DNA from: a bacterium
GTDB lineage: Bacteria > Patescibacteriota > Saccharimonadia > UBA4664
Assembly: GCA_016699105.1 (NCBI GenBank)
Contig: CP064960.1
Span: 968,729 to 1,032,728 of the forward strand
DNA: 64,000 nt
Direction of reading: 5' to 3'
The notes under the pieces: model-generated
What the model saw: only the letters and a program-made list of their open reading frames with translations
Told to the model about the DNA's origin: nothing
Database searches by the model: none
Shown here: positions 38,093 through 56,221 of the stretch, in pieces
How the letters are laid out: every line of letters begins with the position of its first letter
How positions within the stretch are numbered: the stretch's first letter is position 1
Position numbers and translations under genes: made by a program

Positions 38093-38183
38093 TACCCGGT
38101 GAACACCCGGTCTCGGCATCTTTGTCGAGACCGGACCCGGCCCGGACGTTCAACTTAATTGTTGAGCTGCCAGGTCGGGTTTT
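38093..38183 (+). repeat. 90-bp structured repeat, copy 2
   Basis: About 90% identical to copy 1. All differences fall in the two loop regions (gcttcattgt versus gcatctttgt; ctatgtt versus cttaatt); the stems are conserved. It lies 3 nt after a stop codon. Confidence 0.8.
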
Positions 38184-38266
38184 GGTATAAACAGAAAACC
38201 CGCCGACCATGAGGCCGGGGCCTTCTGGTAGACGGGTGATGCACGTGCAGTGCTTGGTTTGTGCGC

Positions 38267-38611: not shown

Positions 38612-38931
38612 CGACGCTGAGTGCGGGTTGGCCTTGCTGTGGGCGGGACGGTGAAGTCGGGCACGGAGCCTCCGGGACGTGGGATTGGGTTTATGCAGGT
38701 GCGATGGAGATCAATGAGATCAAGCTACATTATATCATAATTATAATGCTTTGTCCATCTAAATTACGTGGCAGCGAGAAATGATTATCGACGTTATCGT
38801 TCGCAACCTGAATACTCAAATTACTTTAAGTGCTCGGGTGGAGATCTAGTTCTTGGCATGGAACTAGCAAGCATGGCGGGAGCCTTTGGGTCCCGGCGGA
38901 GGAGTGGGCACTCTCGGTGCCTAATAGACAG

Positions 38932-39594
38932 TTACTGCGAGACCACAGCCGACTTCATCGCCGCGGCGAAGGCCCGGTTGGCAGCCAGCAGGTTGGGTGC
39001 ATCCACGGTGAGGCGGGTGAACGGACTCTCATCAACGAAGATGTGATCGGTGGCAATGACAGCATCATCCGTTACCCGTACTTCGGCGGGAAAGCCATGG
39101 CCAGGGATATCGTGGAAGATGCGCACCCGATCGACGAGGCCGGCGAGTGCAGTAGGCTCCGTATTCAGACAGCCGTCCACAGGCTCGGTGGTAATGCCGA
39201 TCCCCGAAGCGTGTAAGCGGAAGCCTCCACGACTAATCTGCGGACGAGCACCAGGCGGGCCGATGAAACCCTTAAATCCATCCCCGATAGATACAGCCAT
39301 CGGATTCTCTTTATTGTCGATATTGAGAACCAGCACAGTGTACATAGGGTGTACCGTCCTTTCAGGACGAGAGGAGTTTTCGGATCATTACTGGTAGAAA
39401 ATGGTGAAATTTTCGACCGCATAAACCGGGATTTGGTAACTTCCCCCGCCCGTAATCGAAACGAGGTAGTACAGTTTGAATCGCTGAATCGAGAGAATGG
39501 GCACTTTGTAGAGGTAGTCGGGTTTACCGACCTCATACCGACGACCATAGCGGCTATCGGTGATGCTGACATAATGCGGCACGCCGATCATCAT
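38932..39594 (-). CDS. Hypothetical protein (one apparent frameshift)
   Basis: Two overlapping ORF-track pieces (39388-39594 and 38932-39345) point to one gene of about 220 aa. No family recognised. Confidence 0.3.
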
Positions 39595-39746
39595 GCCTCC
39601 AGAGGCGTATGGTGCTGAGTGTGTGGGGTGCTCCAGGCATCAAAAAGATTATGGATAATATTATTATACTATGTAATTGTGTAATTTGCAATTATCATGT
39701 AGTAATGAATGACAACAGCCGGCTTGCATCGCTGCAAACCGGCTGT

Positions 39747-40520
39747 TTACGAGGCCGTGGATTGGCCCGCAAGGGTTGATTCTCGCTCGAGTAGCAGATA
39801 TACCCAACGCGGGTAGTGCTCGCGAATGTTGCCACTGTCATCGAGCCTGGGCCGGGCAACCAGCTGAATAGTAGAGCGACTGACGCGCGGAAGTATCCAA
39901 TCATACGACCGTCCAATGAGATTGGCGATCGTCGTACCGGTAAGCATCTCACCGCCGGGCGGGATATACCGAGGGCGGACACCTAGTTTCTGCACGGCCT
40001 CCTCTCGAAGGTAATGATTGATGACATGGCCGTTGGCAATAGCGCGGAACTCGTGCGGCTGGATTCGGGCTTTACGTAGCCGCGACACGATAGTGCTACA
40101 GGCCCAACCCGTTTCACGCCGCAGATCCAATACAGTGACATATTCCGGTGGTGCCAGCGGCGGCATGAGCTGCTTGAGCTTGGTCACCGTTGTCCGCGGT
40201 ACCCCTATTACTTGCCGGTTTTGGGGCTGCGATAGGTTGTCACGCCGACCAAGTGATAGTGGTCGATGAGGATAATCAGATACTGCCGAGTACAGTTGAG
40301 CGCCGCCGCAGCTTGCGGAAGCGTGAAATTGCGTCCGAGCACTGGCAGGCGCATAAAAGCCTTTTTCAGCCCGTAGATGGGCGAGGGCTTCTGGCGAATA
40401 GATACCGTCGTCATCTGGAGCATACGCAACCAGACGGGCAGCTGCCCACTCGCGGCCACAACTAACTTCTCGAGCGAGCCCTTCTAGCGAAAAAGGTCGA
40501 GGTGCTACCACAATGATACC
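39747..40520 (-). CDS. Protein with three tandem excisionase/MerR-like HTH_17 repeats (one apparent frameshift)
   Basis: Repeats LPQAAAALNCTRQYLIILIDHYHLV, YVTVLDLRRETGWACSTIVSRLRKARIQP and LTGTTIANLIGRSYDWILPRVSRSTIQLV. The N-terminal piece is in another frame (40208-40459). Confidence 0.4.
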   Translation of the reverse strand, partial: GIIVVAPRPFSLEGLAREVSCGREWAAARLVAYAPDDDGIYSPEALAHLRAEKGFYAPASARTQFHASASCGGAQLYSAVSDYPHRPLSLGRRDNLSQPQNRQVIGVPRTTVTKLKQLMPPLAPPEYVTVLDLRRETGWACSTIVSRLRKARIQPHEFRAIANGHVINHYLREEAVQKLGVRPRYIPPGGEMLTGTTIANLIGRSYDWILPRVSRSTIQLVARPRLDDSGNIREHYPRWVYLLLERESTLAGQSTAS

Positions 40521-40575: not shown

Positions 40576-41022
40576 CTACTCGCCTGGCTCATTGAGTTTG
40601 TGCCGATACTCAGCGCGCGTGGCCCAGGCTACTAATTCCTCAATCTCTTGGGGCGACTCCGGATAGAACAATGGCAAGCCCTTAGCCAATGCCCAGGCCC
40701 GCTCGCGCTTGGCGCCGCTGGAGGTATGCCAGCGGGGCGTGAAGAGCACGGCGTCGGCTGCGTTGAGAAAATGAAAATCTAGGGCGTGATAAAAAGTCTC
40801 GTCGGCTTGGGCTTTGGTGCCAAAGTGGTGGGTGTGCAGATGCGGGCAAAAGAAGCCGATGCCGGCGTTGGCAAGGGCTATGGCGTAAGCCTCGGCGTCG
40901 CGGATGTTGGCCTCGATGGTCTCGATTTTGCCATCGCCAATGTAGGGCCCGGCGATGAAGACGATTTTCATCGGGCGAGAGCCGAGGGGTGCCCAGGGGG
41001 TGGTATCTGGAGGGGTGGTCAT
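40576..41022 (-). CDS. DUF4406-family protein (nucleoside 2-deoxyribosyltransferase-like fold)
   Basis: 149 aa from MTTPPDTT. MKIVFIAGPYIGDG is the DUF4406 N-terminal signature. Confidence 0.6.
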   Translation of the reverse strand: MTTPPDTTPWAPLGSRPMKIVFIAGPYIGDGKIETIEANIRDAEAYAIALANAGIGFFCPHLHTHHFGTKAQADETFYHALDFHFLNAADAVLFTPRWHTSSGAKRERAWALAKGLPLFYPESPQEIEELVAWATRAEYRHKLNEPGE

Positions 41023-41040
41023 GGGCAGATTGTAGCAGAT
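40905..41040. repeat. 137-bp direct repeat, copy A (DUF4406 5' end and upstream)
   Basis: Identical to 42130-42268 apart from G-run length differences. Confidence 0.8.
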
Positions 41041-41056
41041 AGCGCCATATTCAGAA

Positions 41057-42087
41057 CTACCCCCGCGGCTTTTTGGACTTGCTTTGTTGGCTAATTGCCT
41101 GCTCAAAGTCACCAACATACTCCAGGTCTTGCTGCGTGCGGAACTCGCTGTATTCCTGAATGGCCTTAGCGTCTGCCTGGGCCTTCGAGATTTTGCCGGC
41201 ATGTTTGAGCTTGGGATAATCATTCAACTCCAGGTAGCCGTCCATGATGCTGAGCCATTGAGCCATGGTTATGGGTAACCGACGGCTAGCACGGAGTTCA
41301 GCAGTATCCAGAAATGCCGACACCGCCAGCCGCAGGTGGTGGAGTTCAGCCTCGGTGAGGTAGTTTTTAGCGACGGTTACATCGGTACGCAGTACTTTGC
41401 CATCCGGTGCGAACTTCCAATTGGTTAGGCCCATGTGCGGTTTGGCGCTGCTGGACCGGTCATGTACGATTTCGGCTGCCGTGCCGCCGGCGACGGCGTA
41501 GTGAAGCTTGTTTTGGATGAAGGCAAAAAACTCTTTGGTCAGCTCGTTGGTTTTGTCATAGTCACTTGCAAGGGCAAAAATATCAGCGAGTTTGAGATAG
41601 ATACGGCGTTCACTGAGCCGGATCTCACGGACGCGCTCCAGGAGCTCGTCAAAGTAGTCTTTGCCAAAATGGGTGCCGTTTTTCAGGCGCTCATCGTCCA
41701 TAGCGAAGCCCTTAATGAGAAAATCGCGCAGAGTGACGGTGGCCCATTTACGGAACTGGGTACCTTCGAGAGATTTTACCCGATAGCCAACGGATATTAT
41801 TACGTCCAAATTGTAATAATTGGTGTCATACTGCTTGCCGTCGGCGGCAGTTGTCCGGAAATTCGGATTACTGCCGACTTATCGAGCTCACCTTCATCAA
41901 AAAGATTTCCGATATGCTCGCTGATGGTTTTCTTAGAGCGATTAAACAGCGCAGCCATTTTGTCTTGCGTGAGCCAGACAGTTTCGTCAGCGAAGAAGAC
42001 CTCGAGCTGAAGCTTGCCATCCGGGGCGGTATAAAACAGAAATTCGCCTTCGTGCGGGGCTAGCTGATTGTTGGTAGGCTTTCGCAT
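41057..42087 (-). CDS. RhuM-family virulence/defence-island protein (one apparent frameshift)
   Basis: N-terminal part ...ETVWLTQDKMAALFNRSKKTISEHIGNLFDEGEL, then (shift at about 41860, A run) DVIISVGYRVKSLEGTQFRKWATVTLRDFLIKGFAMDDERL. Confidence 0.8.
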
Positions 42088-42129
42088 ATTTCAATTATGC
42101 CGAACGGTTACCGTACATGCAAGACAATC

Positions 42130-42268
42130 TGTTGGCCTCGATGGTCTCGATTTTGCCATCGCCAATGTAGGGCCCGGCGATGAAGACGATTTTCATCGGG
42201 CGAGAGCCGAGGGGTGCCCAGGGGGGTGGTATCTGGAGGAGGGTGGTCATGGGCAGATTGTAGCAGAT
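42130..42268. repeat. 137-bp direct repeat, copy B (includes a truncated second copy of the DUF4406 start)
   Basis: Encodes MTTLLQIPPPWAPLGSRPMKIVFIAGPYIGDGKIETIEAN, then diverges. Confidence 0.8.
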
Positions 42269-42287
42269 TGGCTTATCTGGGGCTAAG

Positions 42288-42989
42288 TTAGCCGTGCCGC
42301 AACTCAAGCCGATCTTTGATTTCACGCCAACCCGGCAACTTTTGGTCGAGCAATGCTTTAAACTCGGACCCGTGGTTCTTAATAGTGAGATGACACAGCT
42401 CATGCACCATAACGTACTCGATCGCAGACTTATCTGACTCAATTAGTCGCGGGTTGACCACCACGTTTCCGGCGTTTGTGAAGCTACCCCATCGTTTCTG
42501 CATCTCTTTTACGATCAAACGAGGAGGCTCCACGCCATCGAAGTATCTTAGTGCTTTTGCGTAAACTTCACGAAATACGAAGTTGCGGCGATTTCTGTAC
42601 CAGCCTTCGATCAGCATTTTCGTATACTCGGGCATTTGTGCGCCCATTGATGTCGATACCCTAATCTTTCCTTTGAGTAGGCCGACGGAGTCCGTTTTGC
42701 CAGCTTCAACAATCAGTTCGTATTGCCGCCCGAGATACATGAGGCTTTCGCCTGAAACATACGATCTCTCGTAGCGCTTTTTGTGATACCGATCAAACAT
42801 CCGAAGCTGTTTATCGAGCCACCGCCACTTACTCTCAAGAAATTTTGTAATGCGCTCCTCGCCAGCATCATGAGGAGCCCTTAGTGTGATGGCTTGATCT
42901 GGCTCCACCGTAAGCCGGAGACTCTTCCGCGGCTCGTAAATGAGCTCGTACGAATATTCATACTGCCCATAACGAAAGACCCGTTTCAT
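42288..42989 (-). CDS. YgjP/DUF45 (SprT-like) metal-dependent hydrolase
   Basis: 233-aa ORF with HExxH (MVHELCHL). It is coupled to the 3' end of hsdR by a 4-nt overlap, its usual genomic context. Confidence 0.75.
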   Translation of the reverse strand: MKRVFRYGQYEYSYELIYEPRKSLRLTVEPDQAITLRAPHDAGEERITKFLESKWRWLDKQLRMFDRYHKKRYERSYVSGESLMYLGRQYELIVEAGKTDSVGLLKGKIRVSTSMGAQMPEYTKMLIEGWYRNRRNFVFREVYAKALRYFDGVEPPRLIVKEMQKRWGSFTNAGNVVVNPRLIESDKSAIEYVMVHELCHLTIKNHGSEFKALLDQKLPGWREIKDRLELRHG

Positions 42990-45900
42990 AGTTGGATGAA
43001 CACGTCGTGGTTGTTCTCTGCAAGTATCATGACATCGGTAATGATTGTTTCAATTTGGTCGTAGCTCAGGTCAATGCCCATCTTGCCCTTTACCTCGTCG
43101 TACAGATAGTCATCGAGAAGGCTGCGCATTTGGCGTTTGGTTTCATGGCTGTGCCACCAGTCAACTGTCGCGCTTTGCTGAACCATTTCGTTCATGCCTA
43201 GCACGGCCTGCTGATAAATTGCAGGACTAGATGCCCAGACCCCGAGAGTTGTTTCCAGGTTGCGGTAGAGAATGTCGGCACCCGGTTTGGCGGTAACTTC
43301 TGCTGGCAGCGAGTCGTCGCGCTTGCTCAGTACCGTATCACTTATGAGTCGCAGCTGTTTGAGCGCCTCGATGTCGGCGAGCTTTTTCTGGCGCATCTCT
43401 TCAATAATCTTTGAGATCTTTTTCGAGAATCTAGCATAGAACTCAGGATCGGTAGATAGCCGCTCGGTAATTGTCTTTTGGGTTTGGGCCGCAATAGCTT
43501 CAGCTTTCGACTTGTCAGACCCAAGCTCTGCAATAGCCTTCTCGAAGAGTTCTTTGTCCGTAATATCGATTTGTTCAGTGAGGAGCTCGGCTTCATCGGC
43601 CTTGATATTGTCATCCATAATCTTGATGAGCGCCAATTTGTAAGGCCGGAGATCGGTTTGGTCGGCGTAACGCAGATTAGCCGATTTACGTAGCTCGAGA
43701 AACTTTTTGCATTCGTCACGATACATATGCAGATGCGGGAATTTGGTCGCAAAATCCTGGAGCGTCATCGACTCGCCAAATAGCCGGATGAACTCGTTGA
43801 GAGCAAAAACGAATTGCTTACGCGTTGGCTCATCAGCCAAGAATTGTAGGTATGCCTCGTCGTCGTGAGCCACACCGTTAAATAGGTCGTGGAGCGCGGC
43901 GTAGGCTGACTCGAGTTCAATAATCTTGTCGCCGACATCGACCAATGCACCCTTTACGTCATTTTCATCGTAATTGCCAAACAACTGCATGGCCGTATGA
44001 ATGTTTTGGGCGTTCTCTGAGTAGTCGATGATAAACCCTGCCGTCTTGGGCAAGGTAGGGTTGTCATAGAGGCGGTTCACGCGAGCGATGGCTTGAAGCA
44101 AGTTATGATCGGTTAGCTCACGAGCCAGATACAGCACCGTATTACGCGGAGCGTCAAAACCGGTGAGGAGCTTATCAACCACGATCAGGATTTCGATACC
44201 GTCATCGTTATACTTGAAGCTATCCACGACATCCTTCTCATACGAAAGCAGGCTCTGATATTTCTCTTTAACGTCCTTGAGATAGTCGTCGACTTCTTTC
44301 TTGTGGTCGTCGCCTTCGTTGATGATGCCATTTTCATCCGAGATGACGAGCGCCGTATTGATGAGGCCGCTATCAGTAAAGAACTTCTGCATCATGACGG
44401 CCGAGAACTTTGACGGTGCCACGATCTGAGCCTTGAGGCCGGAGCCCTGTAGCTTATCAATGTAATGGCGTTGGATATCAAAGGCGATCTCGACGATGCG
44501 CTTCGGGTTATCTTTGATGACCCCCTGAGCTACTTGCTTCTGAAGCTGCCTCTTCTTTTCTTCAGATAACCCGGCGGTTAGGCGGTCAACGAGCCGGTCA
44601 ATTTCTTCTTTATCCTGCTTCAAATCAACATACCTGCCCTCATAGATAAGCGGCAAGATGATCTTGTCTTCCAGGGCATCGTCGATAGTGTACTTATCGA
44701 TGAAGTCACCGAACTTGCCACGTGAGCGCTCATTTTTGAGGAGCGGCGTTCCGGTAAAGGCGATGTAGCAGGCATTCGGTATCACGAGGTTCATTTCGCT
44801 GTTGGCGTCGCCGCCCTGGGAACGGTGAGCCTCATCAATGAGTACAAAGATGTTCTCGTCTGGGTCCTTAAACCCGGCGCGCTTGCGAGCGGCGGTCTGA
44901 AATTTATGCACGAGCGTCGTAACTATGCGTTTGTCTTTGAATTGAATGAGATCGAGCAGGTGTTCACCGCTCGTTGCCTGAATCACATCTTTCTTGAGGC
45001 CGGCATTATTGAACGTGCCCTTGATCTGACGGTCGAGATCTTTCCGATCGGTCACGATGATGATGCGGGGGTTCGTGATAGTACTGTCTTCAATGAGTGC
45101 CCGCACAAACATCACCATGGTCAGTGATTTGCCCGAACCTTGAGTATGCCAGACAATACCGCCCTGGCGGCGCTCCCTATTTCCAGCTGCTCAGTTTGCT
45201 TGATGCGCCGCAGAATTTTATGGATCGCAAAGTACTGCTGGTAGCGCATCACTTTCTTGGTGCCAGCATCATAAAGGATGTAGTTCTTGGCGATATCGAG
45301 CAGGCGGGCCTTGTCGAACATCGCGACAACGCTGCGGTCCTGGGCGGTTACTTCCCGCTCAAGTTTTTGGGTATAACCGAGTACCGATCCGTTGAGATCG
45401 GCCAGGAGATCAGAGTATGTGCTGGCCGGGATTGGTTGCGACATAAGCGCCCGCACGCGTCCATCCAGAACGCTATTCGGTGTATCCTTCTCGCGCCAGG
45501 TGGCGTAGAACTTGGCCGGGGTTCCGGTGGTGCCGTAGCGCATGTCTTTCCCGTTGGTGGCGATGAGCAATTGCGTGTAGATAAATAACCGCGGGCAGCG
45601 GTCGACGCTTTGGTTCCGAACCTGCTGATTCATAGCTTCATCAACTTCGACACTGGATTTTTTGTTCTCGATGATCACAAATGGTATGCCGTTCACAAAG
45701 CACACGATGTCGGGCCGAATGTTGCCCTTGCCGCTGGCAGGGTACTCAACGGTGACATGGAATTCGTTATTTTCTGGCATGTCAAAATCGATGAACCGGA
45801 AACTTTTGGATTCATACTTGCCGTCGAGCAACATCTTAATGGTGCGTCCGCCGCGAGTTGGCATGACGGTGTGATAGACGGTTTTTGAAGTGTCGACCAG

Positions 45901-46164
45901 GCCTTCAAACTGAAGATTTTCCAGCTCGTCGATGGCGTCATTGATATCTTTGTCGCTAAACTGGTGGAGCGCATCGGCGTGTTCGTAGCGATTGATCTTC
46001 ATGAGCGCGCGGGCGGCGATGTCTTTGAGAATGAAGTTTGAGGTATCATCGCCACGCTGACGGAGGGCCTCGCCGACCGGGATGTAGTTATAACCGAGGT
46101 TGATGAGCAGCTCGACGAATGGCAGCTGGGATTGCTTGGCCTCGTCGAAATTGATGTCATGCAT
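42986..46164 (-). CDS. hsdR: Type I restriction enzyme R subunit (one apparent frameshift)
   Basis: N-terminal nuclease-like domain (45121-46164, true start MHDINFDEAKQ) and SF2 helicase body (42986-45118, TGTPLL, VLIDEAHRSQ). They are separated by a missing A at about 45180 (expected ...EQLENRERRQGGIVWHTQGSGKSLTMVMF). Confidence 0.9.
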
Positions 46165-47387
46165 GGGTGGGTTCCTTTGCGAGAGGCTTGAGGGTTTCGG
46201 GCACGCGGATTTTGCCAGTGACGAGGTTGTTGAGGAGGTATTTACGCTGAGTTTTGATGATGGCGAGCTTGCGCTCGAGGGTGGTAATTTCGTCATCAAC
46301 GGCAGTCAGAATTTGGGCGATTGCAATTTGCTCTTCGGGTTCGAGGGGAACATAAACATCTGCATCAAAGAAATCAACCGCACTTATATTCAGCAAGCCG
46401 TGGTTTCGCGCCCCTTCCTGTGTAACCGTGGATAAAACCTTGTTGAACAGACCCTGCTCAAAGTAGTGCTGAAGGTAGTCTGATTCAATTCGGGTCGGTG
46501 TAAACGCTAAATAGAGTGTTGATACCGCTCCTTTTTTGTACGCGTTTAGTCTTTTTATAGCACCCATCGGGTAGCCTTTTGAATAACTCTTATTGTAAGC
46601 GAACTCGCCATTGTGCAAGAGCAAATAGCCTGACAGGTCAATGGCGGCTATGCGTTTAGAAAAATATTCCCCTTGTGCAACCAATCCATCTTGTGCCGAT
46701 ATAGTGAGCGCATTCTGGTTTAACTCGCTGTTTTTTCTATTGATTCTCGTACAAACCTCACCCAGTTTCAGGCTCCCCCAGTTTGACCGAAACCCTGGTA
46801 GCCTTATTGCCCCCGTAAGCAGCCCTTCCGCTAGACCATCTTTTAACCGCCTTTTTACTCTGATCGTCACCTGCGACACATTAATTAACTTGTCGCAAGT
46901 CTCTAGCATTGCGACTATACGCTGTTGTACGGGTATAGGTGGAGTCAGAATTTGTAAATCCTTGATCGATTGCAAAAGAGATTTTTATTGTTGAACCAGT
47001 GAGTTCATCAAGCAATCTGGCCCTAGTCTGATCGCATAAAAGAAAATAGTATAAGTATTTTCTTTCTAGGTCGTCTGCACAGTTGATATATGCAGCGCTT
47101 TTCCCGAGTACAATTTGTTCGCCATTGTAAAGCGCAAGACTACCAATCGTGCCATTGATTGACATCAGAATGGTAGAGCCATCAAGGAGCTTCTTATGTT
47201 TTTCGTATTCATTGAGATCAACCTCCTTTGTGCTCCGGCTAATTCGTATCTCTCCGTCAACCAAATTATTGCCGTTGATGAAGAAAATGCCCGTACCGGT
47301 GCTATATTTTGGCGTGCCATGAATACCATCACTAATCTTAGTCGTGATGTCCTTAAGCTTCCACAACCGGTTGGTGTCATTTGCCAT
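46157..47387 (-). CDS. hsdS: Type I R-M specificity subunit (one apparent frameshift)
   Basis: TRD1 (46881-47387) and conserved repeat/TRD2 (46157-46975; ...LQILTPPIPVQQRIVAMLE..., C-terminal ...PLEPEEQIAIAQIL...). The junction is at about 46975 (T run). It overlaps the hsdR start by 8 nt. Confidence 0.85.
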
Positions 47388-47829
47388 CTTTGTCTCGTTT
47401 TTCTACGGCAGTTTTGGCATCATCGGGCAAAGCGTCATATAACGCCTCGATTTCTTTAGGCTCGGTAATTAGTTTTTGAGCGATAAAATTTATCAGGCTG
47501 AATAACGCTACTACCTTAGCTGGATCCTCATCTAAATTGATCTCGCCCGGGTGAACGGCGTTATTGCCCGTAATACGCAGCGCGTCCAATGCCTTCTGAA
47601 TAGTCGGGCTTAGTCCGGCATTCACAAGTTCTGCAATATCATCATTGATGTTCTTGCCTTTCTGTCCAAGTTGAACACAGAGCTTTTGGAGCCCTAGACG
47701 CAATAATGCGGCGGCTGCACGAGGCGAGTCGGCCAGTACCTGAGCGGCTTCATTGTAATCAGCCTGAATATCGGGGTTCAGGTCTCCATTCGGCTGGTCA
47801 ACCGTAATGCTTCGAGGCAAAACTAACAC
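47377..47829 (-). CDS. DUF4145 domain protein (RM-associated)
   Basis: 150-aa ORF with a DUF4145 pattern (RAAAALLRLGLQKLCVQLG). It overlaps the hsdS start. Confidence 0.65.
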   Translation of the reverse strand: MLVLPRSITVDQPNGDLNPDIQADYNEAAQVLADSPRAAAALLRLGLQKLCVQLGQKGKNINDDIAELVNAGLSPTIQKALDALRITGNNAVHPGEINLDEDPAKVVALFSLINFIAQKLITEPKEIEALYDALPDDAKTAVEKRDKDGK

Positions 47830-48075
47830 CTCATTTAGCCAAATACAGTAACCACTACAGTGCTCACACTTTGAAAACTACATATTGTTCAGGAAGTAAT
47901 TCGCTAAACTCGCTTGACCCATAAATATTTGATCGGGTGCCCCTGTGAGGTCTTGAGTAGCCATCAGATGAAGCCGTAAGGTGGGACCAAAATTGCTTTG
48001 CAAAGACCCCGCATACGCCACAGTGGAACGCAGCGACGCTAAAGCCGGGGGCTATATATTCATTTCTCGCCATGG

Positions 48076-48879
48076 CTACTCCCCCAACGATTCTTCTTGA
48101 TTTTGCTTCTTAATACGAGTCTTCGCCTTATTTATGCCATCGGCAACAGGCAAATTCTCGGGCATAGTGCCGCCCAGTTGGTCGATGGTTTGGCGAACTT
48201 TTTGGCCGACTTCGTAGTGGGCAAGGTTTGCCTCGGCTTCGCCCTGAATGCCCTCGCGCTTGAGCTTGGCGTCGGCCTGAGTGGCGCGAAAGAGGTTGGC
48301 AGCCAGTTCTTCGCTACCCATATGGTCGAGAATTCCTTGGGATTTTTTGAGCTGCTTCTTCTTATGGATTTGTTGGGCGGTCATCTTATATAGGCCTTTA
48401 TAACCAGCATTCTGGAAAGTGCCAAAGTTTGATACTCCAGCCTTTTTGGCAGAACTCGCAAGTGAGGCGTTGTGTACCGAAATTTCATCTCGAAGCACTA
48501 CTCGCTTGCCGTCTTCGACGAGAGTATCACTGTCTTCTTGACGCTTGGTTTGGATAGCGAAGTAGGTTTGACCGAGCGCTACCACCTCTTTAGTCGGGTC
48601 GGAGTTCTGTATTATCAAATAGCAGGCGTAGCGACTAAGTTTTACGTCATCGATCTCGCGCTGTGCGCCCGAGCCAAGGACTACCATTTCGAGAATATCC
48701 TCGAAATGGTCGTGGACAACTTGACCACTGTTTTTGGCGGACTCTTTGGCTTTCGTGATTACTGGCAAGAAGTGACGGTATTCGGAGTAGCCAAGAACCT
48801 TACATAAATCTCGCGCCATCCAGTATTCGGCTTGGCTATAATCGACCAGCTTAATTTCTTCAAATACCGTGATGTTCAC
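48076..48879 (-). CDS. dinD: DNA damage-inducible protein D-like
   Basis: 267-aa ORF with strong similarity to the DinD N-terminal region (FEEIK...YWMARDLCKVLGYSEYRHFLPVITKAKESAKNSGQVVHDHFEDILEMVVLGSGAQREIDDVKLSRYACYLIIQN). Confidence 0.75.
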   Translation of the reverse strand: MNITVFEEIKLVDYSQAEYWMARDLCKVLGYSEYRHFLPVITKAKESAKNSGQVVHDHFEDILEMVVLGSGAQREIDDVKLSRYACYLIIQNSDPTKEVVALGQTYFAIQTKRQEDSDTLVEDGKRVVLRDEISVHNASLASSAKKAGVSNFGTFQNAGYKGLYKMTAQQIHKKKQLKKSQGILDHMGSEELAANLFRATQADAKLKREGIQGEAEANLAHYEVGQKVRQTIDQLGGTMPENLPVADGINKAKTRIKKQNQEESLGE

Positions 48880-49073
48880 TGCCTACCCCCTAACTGTATG
48901 CTTAATGTACCGATTGTGGCTCTGTATAGCGCTGATACCATTTCGAGGAGATGCTCGAAATGGTTGTGGAAAACTATCTTAACCGCATCGAAATCGATGC
49001 GGTTACTAGATACTAATTTCATGAGTATAGCAACGTGCAATTCTTGCATGTTACTCGTCTCGTACGGATTCAT
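48876..49073 (-). CDS. Small ORF containing a diverged partial duplicate of a dinD internal segment
   Basis: 65 aa, overlapping hsdM and dinD by 4 nt each. HFEHLLEMV matches dinD HFEDILEMV, and the DNA segments are about 80% identical over about 45 nt. Confidence 0.35.
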   Translation of the reverse strand: MNPYETSNMQELHVAILMKLVSSNRIDFDAVKIVFHNHFEHLLEMVSALYRATIGTLSIQLGGRQ

Positions 49074-50584
49074 GATTTAATCCCCAACTGCTTCAAATAA
49101 TCGTCCATCTGGGCTTCCAGACGGGCTAGCTCGGGCTTGAGGGCTTCGAGCTCTTTGATGGTGGCCTGGATGTCGATTTCGGCTTCTTCCACAAAGGTGT
49201 CAACGTAGCGGGTGATGTTGAGGTTGAAGTCGTTTTCCTGGATTTCGTCGAAGGTGGCGACATGGGCGAATTTGTCGACGTCCTTGCGCTCTTTGAAGGT
49301 ATTGAAGATAGTGTCGATGTGCTCAGGCTCGAGGGTGTTGCGGGCTTTGCCGGGTTTGAAGAGCTTGGAGGCTTCAATGAATAGCACATCCTTTTTGTCG
49401 TGGTTGGCACCACCAACTTCGCGGGAGCGGTCGATTACCAAAATAGCGACAGGGATGCCAGTGGTCTGGAATAGGCCGGCCGGTAGCCCAATGACAGCAT
49501 CGATGATGTTTTCGCGCAAGAAGGCTTCACGGATTTTACCTTCCACGCCGCCCCGGAAGAGCACACCGTGTGGAACAATGACTGCAATGCGGCCGGTCTT
49601 GGGCTTGGCGGTTTCCACCATGTGCGTCACGAAAGCGTAGTCACCTTTGTCCTTGGGCGGGATGCCACGCCAGAAGCGCTTGTACCGGTCGTCTTCGGCA
49701 TTTTCGGCACCCCATTTCTTGAGCGAGAAGGGCGGATTGGCCACACAGATATCAAACTTCATGAGGCGATCATTTTCGACGAAGAGCGGATTGTTGAGAG
49801 TGTCGCCCCATTCCAGGTGTGCGGAGTCTTTGCCGTGGAGGAACATGTTCATGCGAGCCAGCTGGTAGGTGCTGCCGGTTGATTCCTGGCCATAGAGGGC
49901 ATAGTTATTGGAGCCCTGCTTTTCGACTTCGGCGCCAGCGAGCAGCAAGAGGCCGCCACTACCGACGGCCGGATCGCAAATGCGGTCGCCAGGTTTGGGC
50001 TGAGCCAACCGTGCCACCAATGACGCCACGCTTTTGATCGTGAAGAACTCACCAGCCTTCTTGCCGGCGTCGGCGCCGAACTTATCAATGAGGTACATGT
50101 ACGAGTTGCCAATGACGTCTTCATTGATGTGGGCGAGATCAATGGAGTTGAAGTCGTCGAGCAAATGGCGGAGCATCTTGTTTCGCTGCTCGAGCCTGCC
50201 GAGCGTGGACTCAGAGTTGAAGTCGACGCTGAAGACGCCTTCAAGCTTGGCTTTGTTAATATCCTCGATGCGGTGCAGGGCCTTGTTGATTTCTTCGCCG
50301 ATGTTGTCTTCATCTTTCTTGGCGTAGACGTAGTCAAAGGTGGCTTCTTCTGGCAAGTAAAACCGCTCGGTTTTCATCTTGTTGGCAATGCGCTCGGTGT
50401 CGCCGCCGAAGCGATCTTTGTAAACCTCATACTGCTTTTTTGACAGATCACTGAGGTATTTAAAGAACAACATCGTGAGCACGTAGTCTTTGTAGATACC
50501 GGCATCGAGGGAGGTGCGGGACGAGTCGGCCGCATTCCAGAGTATGTTATTGAGCTCTTCTTGGGTGTAGGTTCTGGCGGTCAT
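49070..50584 (-). CDS. hsdM: Type I R-M N6-adenine DNA methyltransferase subunit
   Basis: 504-aa intact ORF with an HsdM N-terminal domain, SAM motif and catalytic NPPF (ANPPFSLKKWG). Confidence 0.92.
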   Translation of the reverse strand: MTARTYTQEELNNILWNAADSSRTSLDAGIYKDYVLTMLFFKYLSDLSKKQYEVYKDRFGGDTERIANKMKTERFYLPEEATFDYVYAKKDEDNIGEEINKALHRIEDINKAKLEGVFSVDFNSESTLGRLEQRNKMLRHLLDDFNSIDLAHINEDVIGNSYMYLIDKFGADAGKKAGEFFTIKSVASLVARLAQPKPGDRICDPAVGSGGLLLLAGAEVEKQGSNNYALYGQESTGSTYQLARMNMFLHGKDSAHLEWGDTLNNPLFVENDRLMKFDICVANPPFSLKKWGAENAEDDRYKRFWRGIPPKDKGDYAFVTHMVETAKPKTGRIAVIVPHGVLFRGGVEGKIREAFLRENIIDAVIGLPAGLFQTTGIPVAILVIDRSREVGGANHDKKDVLFIEASKLFKPGKARNTLEPEHIDTIFNTFKERKDVDKFAHVATFDEIQENDFNLNITRYVDTFVEEAEIDIQATIKELEALKPELARLEAQMDDYLKQLGIKS

Positions 50585-51150
50585 TTGATGGCTCCTTCGA
50601 TTGCGGTGAGCGATTGGTTAAGTATTGATTGGCTGAGAGCGGTTTTTCGTTCAAGGATGGCTCGTTGGCGCATCAAGTTTTGGTGTAGCGCGACGTAGAG
50701 CGCTTGGCGGTCGAGCGGAATATCGGGAACCGGGAGCTGGCGGAGAGTATCAATGAGGAGGGTCTTGATGGATGAGCCGGTAGAGTTTTGGGCGAAGTAG
50801 GCTTGGGCGGCGGGACTATTAAGATGTATTGCCAAATACTCTGGTAAAAGACGGCTCTCATCGGGTTTCATTATGTAGAGCGATGAGCTGGCAATTATCG
50901 GCTCGTCGCAGTTTAACGCGGCGGCACGAAAGCTACCGCGAGCTGCGAGTAAGACAACCATGCCGGTTTCTGGTGCTGTGCGGTAGTCTGCGCCCGTTAC
51001 CCGCGGAAGGCTCTCTAGTTCGACGCCGACGGCCGTCACATCTTTTGATTGGGCTACGCGAACATCTCCAGCAGGGTCATGAAGCACCGGGCCACGGAAG
51101 GTGTAGCCGGATTGGAGCTTGAGTATGAGTTCGTGTAGCTGCGTGGTCAT
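50581..51150 (-). CDS. HsdS-like single-TRD half subunit
   Basis: 189-aa ORF: one target-recognition domain plus the conserved HsdS repeat (SSIKTLLIDTLRQLPVPDIPLDRQ). 4-nt overlap with the hsdM start. Confidence 0.6.
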   Translation of the reverse strand: MTTQLHELILKLQSGYTFRGPVLHDPAGDVRVAQSKDVTAVGVELESLPRVTGADYRTAPETGMVVLLAARGSFRAAALNCDEPIIASSSLYIMKPDESRLLPEYLAIHLNSPAAQAYFAQNSTGSSIKTLLIDTLRQLPVPDIPLDRQALYVALHQNLMRQRAILERKTALSQSILNQSLTAIEGAIK

Positions 51151-51224
51151 ACAAGGAATGTATCACACTATTTGTACATTTGCAACTGCGCACTGACTGC
51201 TACTGTAGCATATCTACTGGATAT

Positions 51225-51425
51225 CTATGACTTCCACTTACCAAACCGCTTCATCACCCATTGGATTGTCGGCAGGATGTAGTAAACGTCGTCTGAATTC
51301 CGAATGTCAAATCGACTTACCGGTGTATTGTAATGCTCGAAGCTATTAGGCATGTAGGTAATGCGGCCGTCGGGATCCATAATATCGACGTCCTCAGGGC
51401 GAATGCTCGGGATTTCAATTGTCAT
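51225..51425 (-). CDS. Small hypothetical protein (66 aa), translationally coupled to the upstream nuclease gene
   Basis: 4-nt overlap with the 51422-52179 gene. No family recognised. Confidence 0.4.
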   Translation of the reverse strand: MTIEIPSIRPEDVDIMDPDGRITYMPNSFEHYNTPVSRFDIRNSDDVYYILPTIQWVMKRFGKWKS

Positions 51426-52179
51426 TTTTGGTTATGCGGCTTGATATAGATGACCGTACTAGCGCCATTCTCGCCAAGAGCTAAACCGATGTGACCCGAG
51501 CGCGGGTTTTCCTTGATGCGCTCATCGATCATCATGAGGCGGTCGCACAGTTCTTCGTAGATTGGCAGCCATTCAGCTTTGGCGCCGGTGAAGTGATCGG
51601 CGACGGTGTACTTTTTGACCTCTTTACTAACCTCATTGATGGTCTGGCTTTTCTTGGAAATCGTGTTGATCGACTCGCTAGAATCCGGGGTTTTGAGGCG
51701 ATTAAACAGTACTGTGTCGTTGCTGTAATATTTGGCTTCCCAGAGCTCCATCGGCAGATCGCGGAAGTTGATGGCTTGCTGTTGGTAGGTGGTGAAGGAA
51801 TTAGCCACAAAGATTACCCGCGACTGCGACCAATCAACGTCGGTTTTGCCGAGGTGCTTGGACATGTGCTCGTTGTATTCAAGGATGAAATCGGCTTTAT
51901 GGTTGAGCATGAGCGAAAGGTAGGCGTAGCCCTGATCAACCACGCTAAAGCTGTGATCGCGCTTGTACTCAATGATTACAAAGGCTTTGGCCTCGGCATC
52001 GAAGGCCAGCGTGTCGACGCGTAGGCCGTTGAGCTGGAATTCGGTGGTCACAAATATAAGGCCAAAGACAGCTTCAAGATTGGCTTCGGCGAGGCGCTGG
52101 AGATCGCTTTCCTTGTACGATTTGGGATTGAGCTCGTTGATGGAGGTGAGCTTGTTCTGGTGGCGGAGAAGATTGGCAT
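51422..52179 (-). CDS. HsdR_N-like PD-(D/E)xK nuclease-domain protein (one apparent frameshift near the start)
   Basis: About 252 aa. ...SDLQRLAEANLEAVFGLIFVTTEFQLNGLRVDTLAFDAEAKAFVIIEYKRD matches the HSDR_N/Mrr-cat D...(D/E)xK pattern. The C-terminal domain is unrecognised. The start atgcca(a)atc lacks an A at about 52173. Confidence 0.55.
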
Positions 52180-52220
52180 GATACAGCGTATTTTACGCTC
52201 GACTTCAGGTCGAGGCTAGC

Positions 52221-52814
52221 TTATATTTTCTCGGCGAGCTTCCGAATTGGCTGCAGTTTGGCCTTACTCCCCTCATCAAGCATCGCAAACTCAATGTACC
52301 TGATCTTGTTCATTGTTGCTTCTTCACCCACTACACTATCAAGGATCAGGAAGCCTAGCCCAGCATATCGCTCCTTGGCCGCATCATCATAATCTGGAAT
52401 ATATATGACAATGTCTAAATGCTCATTGTCTCGCTCACTTGTGAAATACACATCCTCAACCAACATATTGTGGCCGTCATAGGTAAAAGAATCTGTTGAG
52501 ATGGGCGGCTTGAAGGCCGTGATTTTCCAGCCAGGAATGCTTGGAGCCGCCGCCACCATCTCGCGTACTCGGTCGGCATATGTCCGAACCCCGTCACACG
52601 ATACAAAGAACTCGCGCGCACCCTCTCCTAGCGGGCCGATAAGGAAGCACAGGTATTTGTCCGTTTTATCAAATTGCTTTGCGAGTAGCCCAATCAGCCG
52701 ATCCTGATCATTCTCTAGCTGGCTGTATTCATCCGCATGCTGCGCGAACCAAGTCCAAAATTCCGCATAAGTCATAGCGCGGCGTTTAAATATATTCATG
52801 AGAACATCATACAT
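52221..52814 (-). CDS. Hypothetical protein (possibly DUF695-like)
   Basis: 197-aa intact ORF immediately downstream of the Fic gene. Confidence 0.3.
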   Translation of the reverse strand: MYDVLMNIFKRRAMTYAEFWTWFAQHADEYSQLENDQDRLIGLLAKQFDKTDKYLCFLIGPLGEGAREFFVSCDGVRTYADRVREMVAAAPSIPGWKITAFKPPISTDSFTYDGHNMLVEDVYFTSERDNEHLDIVIYIPDYDDAAKERYAGLGFLILDSVVGEEATMNKIRYIEFAMLDEGSKAKLQPIRKLAEKI

Positions 52815-52961
52815 GAGACACTAGCCTCAACGGAGCCCCCACATACCAAACCCACCAACCACCAAATTACATCTCATCTCCGGCGACGGGTTGTGGGCAA
52901 AGAAGGCGCGGCAGGTGACGCCCGACGACACGCACATACAGGTGGACGCGCTCAGAATTCG

Positions 52962-53654
52962 CTAGCGCCCAATCTTCCAAACCCCCTTCTCCCGGAAGGC
53001 CGGGATGGTTTGGCGGCGGGCGGCGTTGAGCAGGGTGCTGGTTGACTGGTCAGTGGATTTTGCATAGTCGGCTAGGTCGATAATTTCGAGCCCTTTGAGA
53101 TATGCCAGGCGCTTGTGCAGAGACTCTATCAAGGCCAACGAGAGGGTGCGGTCAAGTAGTGTTGTTTTGCGGTCATCCTGGTAGGCCTGGAAGGCCGGGT
53201 AGTAGTGGTCGGCTTTGCCCTTATTGCGAATGATGAGCTGGGGATAGCCGAGCTTGGTGAGCTGGAGATTGATGAGCACGCGGCCAATCCGGCCGTTGCC
53301 ATCGCAGAAGGGGTGGATTCGCTCAAACTCAAGGTGAAAGATTGAAATGCGCTCAAGGAAGTATCGGGTATGCTCAGAGTCGTAGTCGGTGATGGCGCTT
53401 TCGATGAGCTGCTCGACGTGTTCGGGAGCCGGCGCGATGTGCGAACCTACCCGAACGTACTCGTGCTGTTTGCGGAAACGACCGGCAATTGCGTCGTCGA
53501 TGCCGCCAATCTGCATTTGGTGCAACAGGAGCATGTTCTCGGGGTTAAACTCGATGTCAGGTTTGCTGGCAAGGTATTCCGACACGCGAGCTAAGTTTTT
53601 AGCCTCGTATAGCTCCCGCGTAGACACGCTCCGCATAACTTGCTGCTCAAGCAA
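52962..53654 (-). CDS. Fic/Doc-family protein
   Basis: Fic motif HPFCDGNGRIGR. Confidence 0.85.
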   Translation of the reverse strand: MLEQQVMRSVSTRELYEAKNLARVSEYLASKPDIEFNPENMLLLHQMQIGGIDDAIAGRFRKQHEYVRVGSHIAPAPEHVEQLIESAITDYDSEHTRYFLERISIFHLEFERIHPFCDGNGRIGRVLINLQLTKLGYPQLIIRNKGKADHYYPAFQAYQDDRKTTLLDRTLSLALIESLHKRLAYLKGLEIIDLADYAKSTDQSTSTLLNAARRQTIPAFREKGVWKIGR

Positions 53655-53873
53655 AATGCGCTCGGTTTCCTTTTATATCAAGGATTATATGTCAATGTAC
53701 CCGTTAATATTGTGTGTTTTATGAACAAATTAACGGTCTTGAATCGAGTGGCCTATCTCGGTATATTGAGTGTACAAATGGGTTTCGACCTCGCCCCCGT
53801 ATCCAGCAATGGTGCGGGGGAGCAATTTTTATCGACCTTTCAGTTATCATATAACTCAACGGAGCCCATACAT

Positions 53874-54453
53874 GTCTAATAAACCCGATGACTTTCTAAC
53901 CCTTACCTTCGCCACCCCAGCAGTATGGGAGGCCTGGCTGGCCAAAAACCATGCCACGTCTACTGGGCTGTGGCTCAAGATTGCCAAGAAGGCCTCGGGT
54001 GTGGCGTCGGTGACCTATGATGAAGCGCTGGCTGTTGCGCTGTGTTATGGCTGGATTGACGGCCTCAAGCGCACGTATGATGCCACCTATTTTATCCAGC
54101 GGTTTACGCCGCGGCGGGCTCGGAGCATCTGGAGCAAACGCAATATCGGCAAAATTACTGAACTGACGGCGGCGGGGCGAATGCAACCGGCGGGACAGGC
54201 TGAGGTAGAACGGGCGCAGGCCGATGGCCGATGGGCGGCAGCCTATGATTCGCCGGCCAATATGGAAGTGCCAGCCGATTTTGTGGCGGCAGTCGAGCGC
54301 AGCCCGGTGGCAGCAGCCACCTTTGCGAAATTGAGCCGGTCTAATCTGTATGCCATTGCTTGGCGGTTGACTACGGTTAAGACGGCGGTGGGGCGGCAGA
54401 GGCGATTTGATGCATTATTAGCTATGCTCGAGCGGGGCGAGACGATTCATTAG
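53874..54453 (+). CDS. YdeI/OmpD-associated family protein
   Basis: 193 aa from MSNKPDDF. YdeI-like pattern (LWLKIAKKASGVASVTYDEALAVALCYGWIDG). GC-rich. Confidence 0.55.
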
Positions 54454-54509
54454 GTATAAAGGGGTGTACCGGCCGCCGAACCTCTGGTGAGGAACGACGG
54501 CCGGGTGGG

Positions 54510-54998
54510 TCAGGCGAGATCGCTCTGCTCGATGTAGCCGTTCACCGTGTCGACGATGTCGCTGACGAGAGACGGATGAGCGCCGTTGTAACCGGGGAGA
54601 TCAACTGTAAGTGTGTCAGGTAGACAGAGATCGTAAATCTCGTTATCTTTGCCGTGTCCAGTATGGCGACAGTTGAAACTGCCATCGAACTGGTACGAGA
54701 ACTGAAATGCACTCCAGGACACCAAGATTCCGGCACCGATTGAGTCATCCCAGCCTTCGTAGAGGAAGAAATACGCACCGGCGTCAGTGATCTGGCTGAC
54801 CCGGGCTACCAAGCGGAACCGATCCTGACACCCTACCCTGATGAACTCGAGTGTGAATTCGAGCTCGACGTCGCGGTTTGAAGCAATCCGCAATTCGGCA
54901 TGTCCGAGATGCGTGGCAACAGATCGCATCGTGCGATCGGCCAAATCGGTGTAGTCGGAGCTAGTGAGACGGGCGGGAGTCTGTCTGGTCGTGTTCAC
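54510..54998 (-). CDS. Hypothetical protein
   Basis: 162-aa ORF. No family recognised. Confidence 0.35.
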   Translation of the reverse strand: MNTTRQTPARLTSSDYTDLADRTMRSVATHLGHAELRIASNRDVELEFTLEFIRVGCQDRFRLVARVSQITDAGAYFFLYEGWDDSIGAGILVSWSAFQFSYQFDGSFNCRHTGHGKDNEIYDLCLPDTLTVDLPGYNGAHPSLVSDIVDTVNGYIEQSDLA

Positions 54999-55137
54999 GG
55001 GTTGTCGACCTCATCTCTGATTGTGGGGCCGGTATAACCGGCGGGAACGCTTTGTAAGCAGAATGAATCCTGCTGTAAAGTGATAAATATTTTATCATAT
55101 TTTGTGCTTTATGTCTATAGGCCATAGCTGATAATCA

Positions 55138-55166
55138 TTGACTTTGGTACTTAATCCTTGTATTAT
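55138..55166 (+). promoter_or_regulatory. Near-consensus sigma-70-type promoter
   Basis: TTGACT, 17-nt spacer, TATTAT, about 65 nt upstream of the 55232 start. Confidence 0.45.
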
Positions 55167-55231
55167 AGCGACGGGCTTTTCGGATAATACCCCTAGTTCG
55201 TTCCTACCCAACTTCGACAGATTGGACGGCC

Positions 55232-56221
55232 ATGTCCGACCAACAATCTTGGTTCGCGATAGCAGGTTTCGTCATCGTGGCAGTTCTCGTGATCGTATTG
55301 AAAATCCGGTCAGATCGATCTGAACAGTGGCTGATGCGGCGCGCAAACATTGAGTCAACGCTCAATACTGCCTGTAATAAAGATGCATTTGGCAGTAGTC
55401 AGACAGAAATCGAAACAGCCGCTCGTACCATCAAGGACATCATGTATAGCGGTAACGATACTGACCAGAATATTTTGGCGTCCCTCTACCGTCACAATGA
55501 TATCAATAGAGCGGTCGAGGTAGCATTTAATGCTGCCAATAGGGCAGCTATGAAAGCGGAAATCGCGGCTTGCTTGATCGAACTGAATGCTTTGACGGAT
55601 GATCTCAACACGCGCGATGTTGAAGCCTATGCCAGAGCCCGCACGCGCCAGGTGGATTTGTGTGAGCGAATTCTCGATGGCACGCGCAACCTCGACCGCA
55701 TTAGTCAAAATGTAGTGTTGAAAGAGTGGCCGCTGTTTCAGCGGTTTGACGATGGCGAAACGTGGGTCAAGACGGCGCACCGCGATCTCATCTGGACCCT
55801 GTTTGAGGCCGCCGATACGGCCCATTCACTCGAGAATGTGGCTGATTATCTGCGCGTTATCGTTGAGCTGACGATGCGTCGTGAGGGATTGATGACCGAG
55901 TCGTACTTTGAGCATTATCACCGTCTGCGTGGTCTCTTGGCCGACACCTCCGTCGATGATCTGTACGGCTACGGCCTGCCAGGTGATTACGCCATACAGA
56001 TGATCGTTCATGCTGGTGTGGACGAGCTCGATGCAGAGAATGCAAAGCCCGATCTGGGCAAGATCTACATGGCAATTCTGTATTTGAAGGCTAATCCGTT
56101 GCTGTTTGCGTCATTTGAAACCACAGATTGGCTGAGCCGGCTGGAAGAAGCCAGGCTCCGCTTGATTGCCGACTGGATGGCTAGCCACCGGTCTACTACC
56201 CCCACTGCCCCAGAAGAATAG
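55232..56221 (+). CDS. Hypothetical membrane-anchored protein
   Basis: 329-aa ORF with an N-terminal TM (WFAIAGFVIVAVLVIVL) then a helical soluble domain. Confidence 0.45.
   Translation: MSDQQSWFAIAGFVIVAVLVIVLKIRSDRSEQWLMRRANIESTLNTACNKDAFGSSQTEIETAARTIKDIMYSGNDTDQNILASLYRHNDINRAVEVAFNAANRAAMKAEIAACLIELNALTDDLNTRDVEAYARARTRQVDLCERILDGTRNLDRISQNVVLKEWPLFQRFDDGETWVKTAHRDLIWTLFEAADTAHSLENVADYLRVIVELTMRREGLMTESYFEHYHRLRGLLADTSVDDLYGYGLPGDYAIQMIVHAGVDELDAENAKPDLGKIYMAILYLKANPLLFASFETTDWLSRLEEARLRLIADWMASHRSTTPTAPEE

Follow-up and report, generated by a model that had tools for sequence, protein, structure and literature searches.

We analyzed a 64,000-nucleotide window (GenBank contig CP064960.1, forward-strand positions 968,729 to 1,032,728) from the ~1.3-Mb genome of a member of the Saccharimonadia, a lineage of the candidate phyla radiation (CPR), that contains a type I restriction-modification (R-M) system with a set of accessory genes. 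All coordinates are positions in this window. Open reading frames (ORFs) were listed on both strands and identified by matches to Pfam, NCBIfam, and PADLOC profiles. An earlier sequence-only reading had described a continuous chain of minus-strand genes at 40576–53654, i.e., a co-oriented, overlapping core with defense-type genes stacked in and around it, and the ORF listing bears this out (Table 1).

Table 1. Features of the type I R-M locus in window coordinates, listed in minus-strand order. TRD, target recognition domain.
Feature	Position	Strand	Length (aa)	Description
Fic-domain gene	52962–53636	−	224	flanking passenger, outside the overlapping operon
Orphan ORF	52221–52814	−	197	no family match
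PDC-S18 gene	51225–52179	−	318	weak PD-(D/E)xK-like N-terminus
Half-S-like gene	50581–51150	−	189	predicted TRD-like head and long C-terminal helix; first gene of the conserved operon
hsdM	49070–50584	−	504	
65-aa ORF	48876–49073	−	65	putative DinD-type relic; 4-nt overlap with each neighbor
dinD	48076–48879	−	267	Bro-N N-terminus; cargo of the hsdM–hsdS slot
RAZR/PD-T7-4 homolog (DUF4145 gene)	47377–48073	−	231	predicted zinc ribbon and DUF4145 HEPN RNase domain; cargo
hsdS	46157–47387	−	410	two TRDs, two conserved helices
hsdR	42986–46164	−	1059	
ygjP	42288–42989	−	233	SprT-like HExxH metallopeptidase; last operon gene
DUF4406 5′ fragment with leader (direct-repeat copy)	~42130–42268	−		putative left footprint of rhuM insertion
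rhuM	41057–42087	−	343	length after adding one A; passenger downstream of ygjP
DUF4406/DUF7768/DUF1937-type gene	40576–40971	−	131	from MKIVF; intact downstream copy of the putative insertion target

The type I core was confirmed by profile matches to all three subunits. HsdM scored 257 bits with NCBIfam TIGR00497 (cut-off 242.75) and matched Pfam N6_Mtase (5e-97) and HsdM_N (2.2e-21). HsdR scored 465 bits with TIGR00348 (cut-off 284.55); it contains HSDR_N (5.2e-35), SWI2_SNF2 (2.6e-56), and T1R_D3-like domains, and the intact 1059-aa protein has a Walker A motif, GSGKS, at residue 343 and DEAH at 444. HsdS matched PADLOC Specificity_I (5.3e-87) and has the two variable TRDs and two conserved helices of a type I specificity subunit, with a median pairwise identity of 17% in the TRDs and 56–60% in the helices among 63 family members. 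The interval 45121–46299, previously taken for hsdS, in fact encodes the HSDR_N part of hsdR, and the true hsdS is the gene given in Table 1. The presence of two S-type proteins, with a single-TRD one directly upstream of hsdM, was recognized correctly. From what is established for the type I family, an M2S complex would methylate a bipartite site, and R2M2S would translocate along, then cut, unmethylated DNA. We also considered an hsdS shufflon or other phase variation and rejected it: half-S and hsdS have no repeats in common, inverted ones included, and the flanking ORFs scanned contain no recombinase domain.

In the window as deposited, five genes are split, i.e., hsdR, hsdS, the DUF4145 gene, the 318-aa PDC-S18 gene, and rhuM. 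Taken at face value, these frameshifts would make the island a decaying locus of pseudogenes. An exact-protein look-up with HsdM, however, returned two independent short-read contigs from other samples, L001 (16,971 bp) and L002 (4,709 bp). L001 aligns to window positions 42241–58486 with 99.8% identity, and the 12 indel columns of this alignment all reflect a difference in homopolymer length; L002 matches L001 at 100% identity without a gap. The contigs encode an intact 318-aa nuclease-like protein and a 1059-aa HsdR (both in L001) as well as a 231-aa DUF4145 protein and a 410-aa HsdS (both in L001 and L002). The breaks correspond to a 1-nt homopolymer deletion at 45178 in hsdR, a 2-nt indel at 46982 in hsdS, and one surplus T at 47877 in the DUF4145 gene. 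Moreover, homopolymer indels at 51430 and 52167 divide the 318-aa gene into ORFs of 209 and 66 aa, which had been read as two genes, an HsdR_N-like nuclease and a small ORF. Such indels also occur outside the island, where a heliorhodopsin gene carries three (56365, 56817, 56843). As the indels are confined to homopolymers and the genes are intact in two independent contigs, long-read assembly error is almost certainly the cause of the frameshifts in hsdR, hsdS, the DUF4145 gene, and the 318-aa gene, and genuine decay of the locus is highly improbable. The type I system is therefore probably functional; the catalytic motifs of the intact HsdR, YgjP, Fic, and DUF4145 proteins are all kept. L001 and L002 do not cover rhuM, which is split into 95 and 250 aa by a frameshift at an AAA run (~41860); from the window sequence alone we infer a 1-nt homopolymer error here, and adding one A yields a 343-aa RhuM. 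An ORF-based reading of this DNA is compromised by homopolymer errors that likely affect the whole window, and the many short or split ORFs elsewhere in it are probably the same long-read artifact.

Most junctions in the chain had been described as overlaps of 4–8 nt. This holds for the segment from half-S to ygjP only, where successive genes are spaced by −4, −4, −4, +2, −11, −8, and −4 nt (L001 coordinates), i.e., six of seven junctions are overlaps of 4–11 nt, among them the 4-nt overlap of half-S with hsdM. It does not hold upstream, where there are gaps of 148 nt between Fic and the orphan, 41 nt between the orphan and the 318-aa gene, and 74 nt between the latter and half-S, nor for rhuM and the DUF4406 gene, which lie downstream of ygjP outside the overlapping block. 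The overlaps thus support the view that half-S to ygjP form one tightly coupled transcription unit.

To place this unit among its relatives, we scanned one genome per species with HsdM, which gave 80 loci, and searched these by tblastn with the intact island proteins. The loci are mostly from CPR/Patescibacteria, with others from Gammaproteobacteria, Nitrosomonas, Nitrotoga, Omnitrophota, and one archaeal metagenome-assembled genome (MAG); the best HsdM relative (93% identity) is from a Candidatus Saccharimonadia MAG (L003). Gene order and strand are fixed throughout: half-S, hsdM, a cargo slot, hsdS, sometimes a second, smaller slot, hsdR, and ygjP. Two annotated alphaproteobacterial plasmids whose HsdM is only 58% identical have the same frame, in one case as S (209 aa), M, RhuM, S, Shedu, HAD, R, and SprT-family protease, and in the other as S, small ORF, M, S, DUF3800, R, and SprT-family protease. 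Cultured bacteria with this frame include Methylocystis rosea GW6 (plasmid pGW6_2) and Sulfitobacter dubius DSM 109990 (plasmid e). Half-S and YgjP are the only constant partners of the core.

The junction between hsdM and hsdS is a near-obligatory cargo slot. In 60 of 61 loci it spans 1 kb or more, and in 24 of the 61 the gap from hsdS to hsdR exceeds 190 nt. Of the gap ORFs of at least 110 aa, 155 of 158 lie on the operon strand. We scanned 150 gap ORFs for protein families and found diverse known defense families, namely AAA_21/AAA_15 ATPases resembling AriA, GajA, and PtuA (~15), DinD/Bro-N (14–17), RhuM (8), Shedu (7), KilA-N (7), ThsB-TIR (6), NYN (5), SMODS (4), DUF4145 (4), DUF3800 (4), DUF2130, YhcG, and others. 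The passengers of our locus, in turn, vary freely among the 80 loci. DinD found a tblastn match in 12–16 of them, RhuM in 10–12, DUF4145 in four, Fic in one to five, and the 318-aa gene in two, after ygjP and on the opposite strand; the orphan and the DUF4406 gene found none. A similar stack around the same frame occurs in a Patescibacteria MAG (L016:5342–19428, HsdM 77% identical), in the order Fic, two unknown genes, RhuM, a 221-aa ORF, half-S, HsdM, a DinD-like gene, DUF4145, HsdS, two ORFs, HsdR, and YgjP.

The passengers themselves are largely known types. The Fic protein matched Pfam Fic (9.5e-21) and, in PADLOC, PDC-S04 (9e-22) and SoFic (5e-20), and it carries the motif HxFx(D/E)GNGRxxR, with HPFCDGNGR at residue 108 (HPFCDGNGRIGR from residue 108). 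It was rejected as a SoFic equivalog, given 33 bits with NCBIfam SoFic (cut-off 550) and a best PADLOC match to PDC-S04. The adjoining 197-aa ORF had been labeled DUF695-like; it has no Pfam match even at E ≤ 10, none in PADLOC or NCBIfam, and its sole match in the protein database is itself, so it is an orphan. The 318-aa protein matched PDC-S18 (2.9e-93), with a weak match to HSDR_N_2 (0.0095–0.014). Homologs 47–55% identical to it lie directly downstream of ygjP on the opposite strand at L023:16770–17696 and L069:9632–10537. Judged by this homology, the PDC-S18 family associates with the type I operon at differing positions.

Within the main slot, DinD is a full-length equivalog match to NCBIfam PRK11525 (349.8 bits, cut-off 242) and also matched PADLOC PDC-S13 (1.2e-108) and Bro-N (6e-11). 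The 65-aa ORF between hsdM and dinD aligned in BLASTP to DinD residues 54–66 (9 of 13 identical) and shares with dinD a 40-nt direct repeat of 88% identity; a stretch resembling it also follows hsdM in L003. We interpret it as what is left of a previous DinD-type cargo gene. Inside this ORF, just after hsdM, the minus strand has a hairpin with an 11-bp stem at 48980–49005, TAACCGCATCGA-TTTC-GATGCGGTTA, followed by a T-rich tail, and a 31-nt inverted repeat connects 48680–48710 in dinD with 48937–48967 in the relic. Hairpin and inverted repeat could be an attenuator or a recombination site.

The second cargo gene encodes a DUF4145 protein that matched PADLOC PD-T7-4 at 5.5e-81, covering 2–209 of 211 profile positions, and Pfam DUF4145 at 5.8e-17. 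DUF4145 was noted in 2013 as a HEPN family of R-M operons (PMC3710099). PD-T7-4 has since been renamed RAZR, ring-activated zinc-finger RNase; it combines a zinc ribbon with a DUF4145 HEPN RNase domain, is activated by assembling around ring-shaped phage proteins, and, when encoded by itself on a plasmid, defends E. coli (Nature 2026, PMC13017515). The likeness of our protein to RAZR is supported by the profile match, by a Cys4 zinc-ribbon pattern (CGVC at residue 18, CEHC at residue 69), and by R166-x7-H174, the predicted catalytic residues of the HEPN domain, with the same spacing as R146/H154 of E. coli RAZR. Unlike the E. coli protein, this predicted RNase comes from a CPR bacterium and is encoded within a type I operon.

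Downstream of ygjP, RhuM matched Pfam Virulence_RhuM (1e-95, 250-aa fragment) and PADLOC PDC-S05 (3.2e-137, 343 aa), i.e., it is a full-length match given the repair. It is bracketed by a ~136-bp direct repeat (40905–41040 and 42130–42268) whose blocks D1 (96 nt) and D3 (28 nt) are each 100% identical. Each copy comprises the leader of the DUF4406 gene together with its first 22 codons; the truncated DUF4406 copy noticed earlier is real and is this 5′ end with its leader. The complete gene matched Pfam DUF7768 (1e-06), DUF1937 (2e-05), and DUF4406 (2e-04), and an exact-protein look-up gave no record. L001 terminates exactly at the rhuM-flanking repeat. Because it duplicates the DUF4406 leader and 22 codons, the repeat fits a remnant of single-crossover insertion, and it looks like the scar of a Campbell-type cassette integration: rhuM would have entered the DUF4406 5′ end by a recombination event that duplicated ~136 bp.

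The sequence-only reading had proposed that several of the partners could be new defense modules. The PADLOC scan shows that they already belong to cataloged families, i.e., PDC-S04/SoFic, PDC-S05, PDC-S13, PDC-S18, and PD-T7-4; the only accessory genes without a PADLOC match are the orphan, the 65-aa relic, ygjP, and the DUF4406 gene. Payne et al. 2024 (10.1101/2024.01.29.577857) built the PADLOC "PDC" families on genes that lie within BREX, DISARM, and type I systems, and dinD, RhuM, and Fic genes were listed between type I core genes by Milman et al. 2023 (PMC9881135). Experimental examples of such embedding are TgvAB on VPI-2 of Vibrio cholerae (PMC11411939) and PrrC in EcoprrI (PMC12707154). 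Our locus resembles these "guilt by embedding" operons in that unrelated defense genes lie between the hsd genes on the same strand, and it resembles the set of Payne et al. in that its DinD, RhuM, Fic, and PDC-S18 are PADLOC candidates. It differs in that Fic, the orphan, PDC-S18, and rhuM lie beside rather than inside the operon, in its host, a CPR bacterium with a small genome, and in a constant half-S as first and YgjP as last gene, which the cited embedding papers do not discuss. Since the passengers are PADLOC families and vary freely, the locus fits the published embedding pattern rather than an expanded restriction machine.

We consider the locus most probably a type I R-M operon that moves horizontally, belongs to a widespread family, and carries cataloged defense genes as exchangeable passengers. 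Between L003 and the window, only the stretch from half-S to ygjP is shared; the L003 flanks are non-syntenic and the L003 slot holds a KilA-N gene (PADLOC PDC-S22) instead, from which we conclude that the operon moves as a unit. In our locus, the main slot holds dinD, the RAZR/PD-T7-4 homolog, and the 65-aa putative relic of an earlier DinD gene, while unrelated defense-type passengers adjoin the operon, i.e., Fic, the orphan, and the PDC-S18 gene upstream and rhuM downstream. The embedded genes would act as independent back-up defenses riding on operon transcription, as shown elsewhere for RAZR/PD-T7-4 and presumed for the rest. On comparative evidence, passenger genes are exchanged between lineages as cassettes, and we read the DinD relic and the rhuM-flanking repeat as footprints of that exchange.

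Some observations weigh against this interpretation. Independence of the cargo has been demonstrated experimentally for PD-T7-4/RAZR only, and in E. coli (PMC13017515), and PrrC exemplifies an embedded gene that can depend functionally on its type I host (PMC12707154). DinD directly precedes DUF4145 in two of the four related DUF4145 loci (L016, L056), so that DinD and RAZR may form a pair, although two loci are too few to call this a real pairing. Also, scans for sigma-70 promoter and intrinsic terminator consensus sequences gave counts at or below shuffle expectation, so that the operon structure is read from the gene overlaps only.

The alternative is that the 13 kb form one expanded system, with DinD, RAZR, RhuM, Fic, and the nuclease-like protein working together with the type I enzyme, perhaps as PrrC-like guards triggered by phage inhibition of that enzyme. 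The common strand of these genes and the tight overlaps within the core would agree with it, PrrC in EcoprrI offers a precedent (PMC12707154), results on TgvAB hint that a type I system and the genes embedded in it may complement each other (PMC11411939), and L016 has a similar stack of Fic, RhuM, DinD-like, and DUF4145 genes in and around this frame. However, the sequence-only reading had itself named neighborhood comparison as the test that could refute an expanded system, and the outcome largely did so. Each accessory family is found in a minority of loci, the same families recur at differing positions and strands, and even L003, with its closely related HsdM, carries unlike cargo. Moreover, PD-T7-4/RAZR encoded by itself on a plasmid protects E. 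coli (PMC13017515), and gaps of 41–148 nt part Fic, the orphan, and the 318-aa gene from the operon. We hence regard an integrated machine as unlikely.

Whereas the cargo changes, the small S-like gene in front of hsdM stays. Half-S was found in 77 of 78 loci with upstream sequence, in 75 as an intact ORF of ~190 aa abutting hsdM and in two more by profile search. A search of 1.84 billion representatives with the family profile returned at least 339 clusters at 50% identity (E ≤ 1e-30), and the best 150 matches were all 180–228 aa long. By sequence, these relatives form a coherent half-size family; the identical half-S protein is on record from one MAG. Half-S matched PADLOC Specificity_I at ~2e-10, and its profile matched 1yf2 (4e-18) and Esub1 (9e-17) in the PDB. 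Its AlphaFold2 model, with a predicted local distance difference test (pLDDT) score of 75.7, shows a β-rich head and a 43-residue C-terminal helix (residues 146–188), i.e., the modeled protein has the TRD fold and long helix of a canonical HsdS. In Foldseek, the top match of the model was Esub1 of S. pyogenes (template modeling score 0.70, E 2e-10), and further matches were the S subunits of BsaXI, PacII, EcoKI, and M. jannaschii.

Half-S may be an ordinary second specificity subunit, whose homodimer would work with HsdM and HsdR on a second, palindromic bipartite target beside the asymmetric one of the full HsdS. This is a serious possibility, although we put it somewhat short of an even chance. 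The predicted TRD-plus-helix fold, the overlap with hsdM, and the position held across the family speak for it. So does quick evolution, with a median pairwise identity of ~34% for half-S and 77% for HsdM. Half-HsdS subunits, engineered or natural, likewise consist of one TRD and one conserved helix and can dimerise to replace a full S, and engineered half-HsdS dimers form active methyltransferases and restriction enzymes (Bower et al. 2018, PMC6158711); here, by contrast, the same operon also encodes a full two-TRD S.

The conservation pattern of half-S, however, is the inverse of that of a canonical S subunit. Its head has a median pairwise identity of 37% and its helix 29%, compared with 17% for the TRDs and 56–60% for the helices of the full HsdS from the same loci, so that the helix is the least conserved part of half-S and the most conserved part of canonical S. 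Half-S thus lacks both the conserved helix and the hypervariable, swapped TRD of canonical HsdS, and it is without the LLTGKIR-type helix motif of the family. Furthermore, half-S is inherited with hsdM and not swapped: its identity tracks that of HsdM (Spearman 0.62), and in pairs with HsdM at least 90% identical, the median is 73% for half-S and 34% for the full S. We also tested half-S as a copy of a TRD from its own hsdS and rejected this, as similarity to the latter (~28% over 90 aa) is no higher than between loci (median 27.5 bits in the own locus, 28.9 bits across loci).

The closest solved relative, Esub1 (PDB 8VSQ/8VSR), is a half-S-like homodimer without detectable HsdM binding, which argues against half-S as a second S, and the phage protein paratox binds its DNA-binding face (PMC11754733). 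Like half-S, Esub1 is S-like at half size, with a TRD-like head and a dimerisation helix, at a sequence identity of ~21–22% in the structural alignment. Unlike half-S, which overlaps hsdM and holds a fixed position across a large family, it is encoded away from the hsd genes. We tentatively suggest that half-S could be a distinct, uncharacterized core component of a very widespread type I family with a non-canonical role, and not a spare specificity subunit, a reading that we hold with less than even confidence. Speculatively, it may form an Esub1-like homodimer with a constrained head and a freely drifting dimerisation helix and act as a DNA-binding controller of the operon; an equally speculative alternative is a decoy or sensor for phage anti-restriction proteins. 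In a weak test for an autoregulator, palindromes were not enriched in the 120 nt upstream of 74 half-S genes, where the best palindrome arm averaged 5.66 nt (shuffles 5.35 nt, coding controls 5.48 nt).

YgjP is equally constant, with ygjP following hsdR in 56 of 56 related loci whose contig continues. The protein matched Pfam YgjP-like at 3.6e-48 (164.8 bits, cut-off 26) and has the HExxH motif of SprT-like metallopeptidases as HELCH at residue 196; in the plasmid examples, RefSeq annotates it as SprT-family metalloprotease. In the literature available to the search, YgjP/DUF45 had no functional study in the context of a type I operon. The SprT-like domain of ArdC can modulate HsdRMS restriction (PMC7213743). 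Like YgjP with its strict linkage to hsdR, ArdC is a SprT-like metalloprotease tied to type I systems; it is, however, an anti-restriction protein that plasmids encode and that works in the recipient cell, whereas YgjP is encoded by the R-M operon itself. We infer that YgjP may have a role in controlling HsdR. Together, half-S and the YgjP protease might provide a control layer for type I restriction.

Around the island, no tRNA genes, Rfam families, or integration landmark were found in the window, and the flanking ORFs scanned, which include exonuclease I, DUF5052, OmdA, and heliorhodopsin, contain no integrase, transposase, or recombinase domains. A search for near-identical copies of the 13.6-kb region found none in complete E. 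coli genomes or in PLSDB plasmids. The heliorhodopsin gene (56326–57100, Pfam 7e-62), split by assembly errors, and a trypsin-like serine protease gene (57154–58356) lie 3–4 kb from the island and look like ordinary chromosomal genes. A 329-aa ORF at 55232–56221 on the plus strand has a weak match to NNH5, a NACHT N-terminal helical domain, below cut-off (E 0.0027) and no PADLOC match; it might be a further defense-related gene, or nothing. To the left of the island, G+C content is higher at 37500–40511 (55–58%), and the ORFs there, including one of 254 aa at 39747–40511, have no Pfam or PADLOC match.

As a defense island, the locus is ordinary; it adds little more than a record of the embedding pattern in a CPR bacterium with a small genome, of which the island occupies ~1%. 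The comparison sharpens this pattern to a strict type I frame, with half-S and ygjP as constant additions and a near-obligatory cargo slot between hsdM and hsdS. The only part of the locus with potential for novelty is the half-S-like gene and, to a lesser degree, YgjP. If half-S proved to act as a regulator or a decoy, or to be a true second S, thousands of "restriction endonuclease subunit S" annotations would have to be reread, and the assignment of methylome motifs to type I systems would also change.

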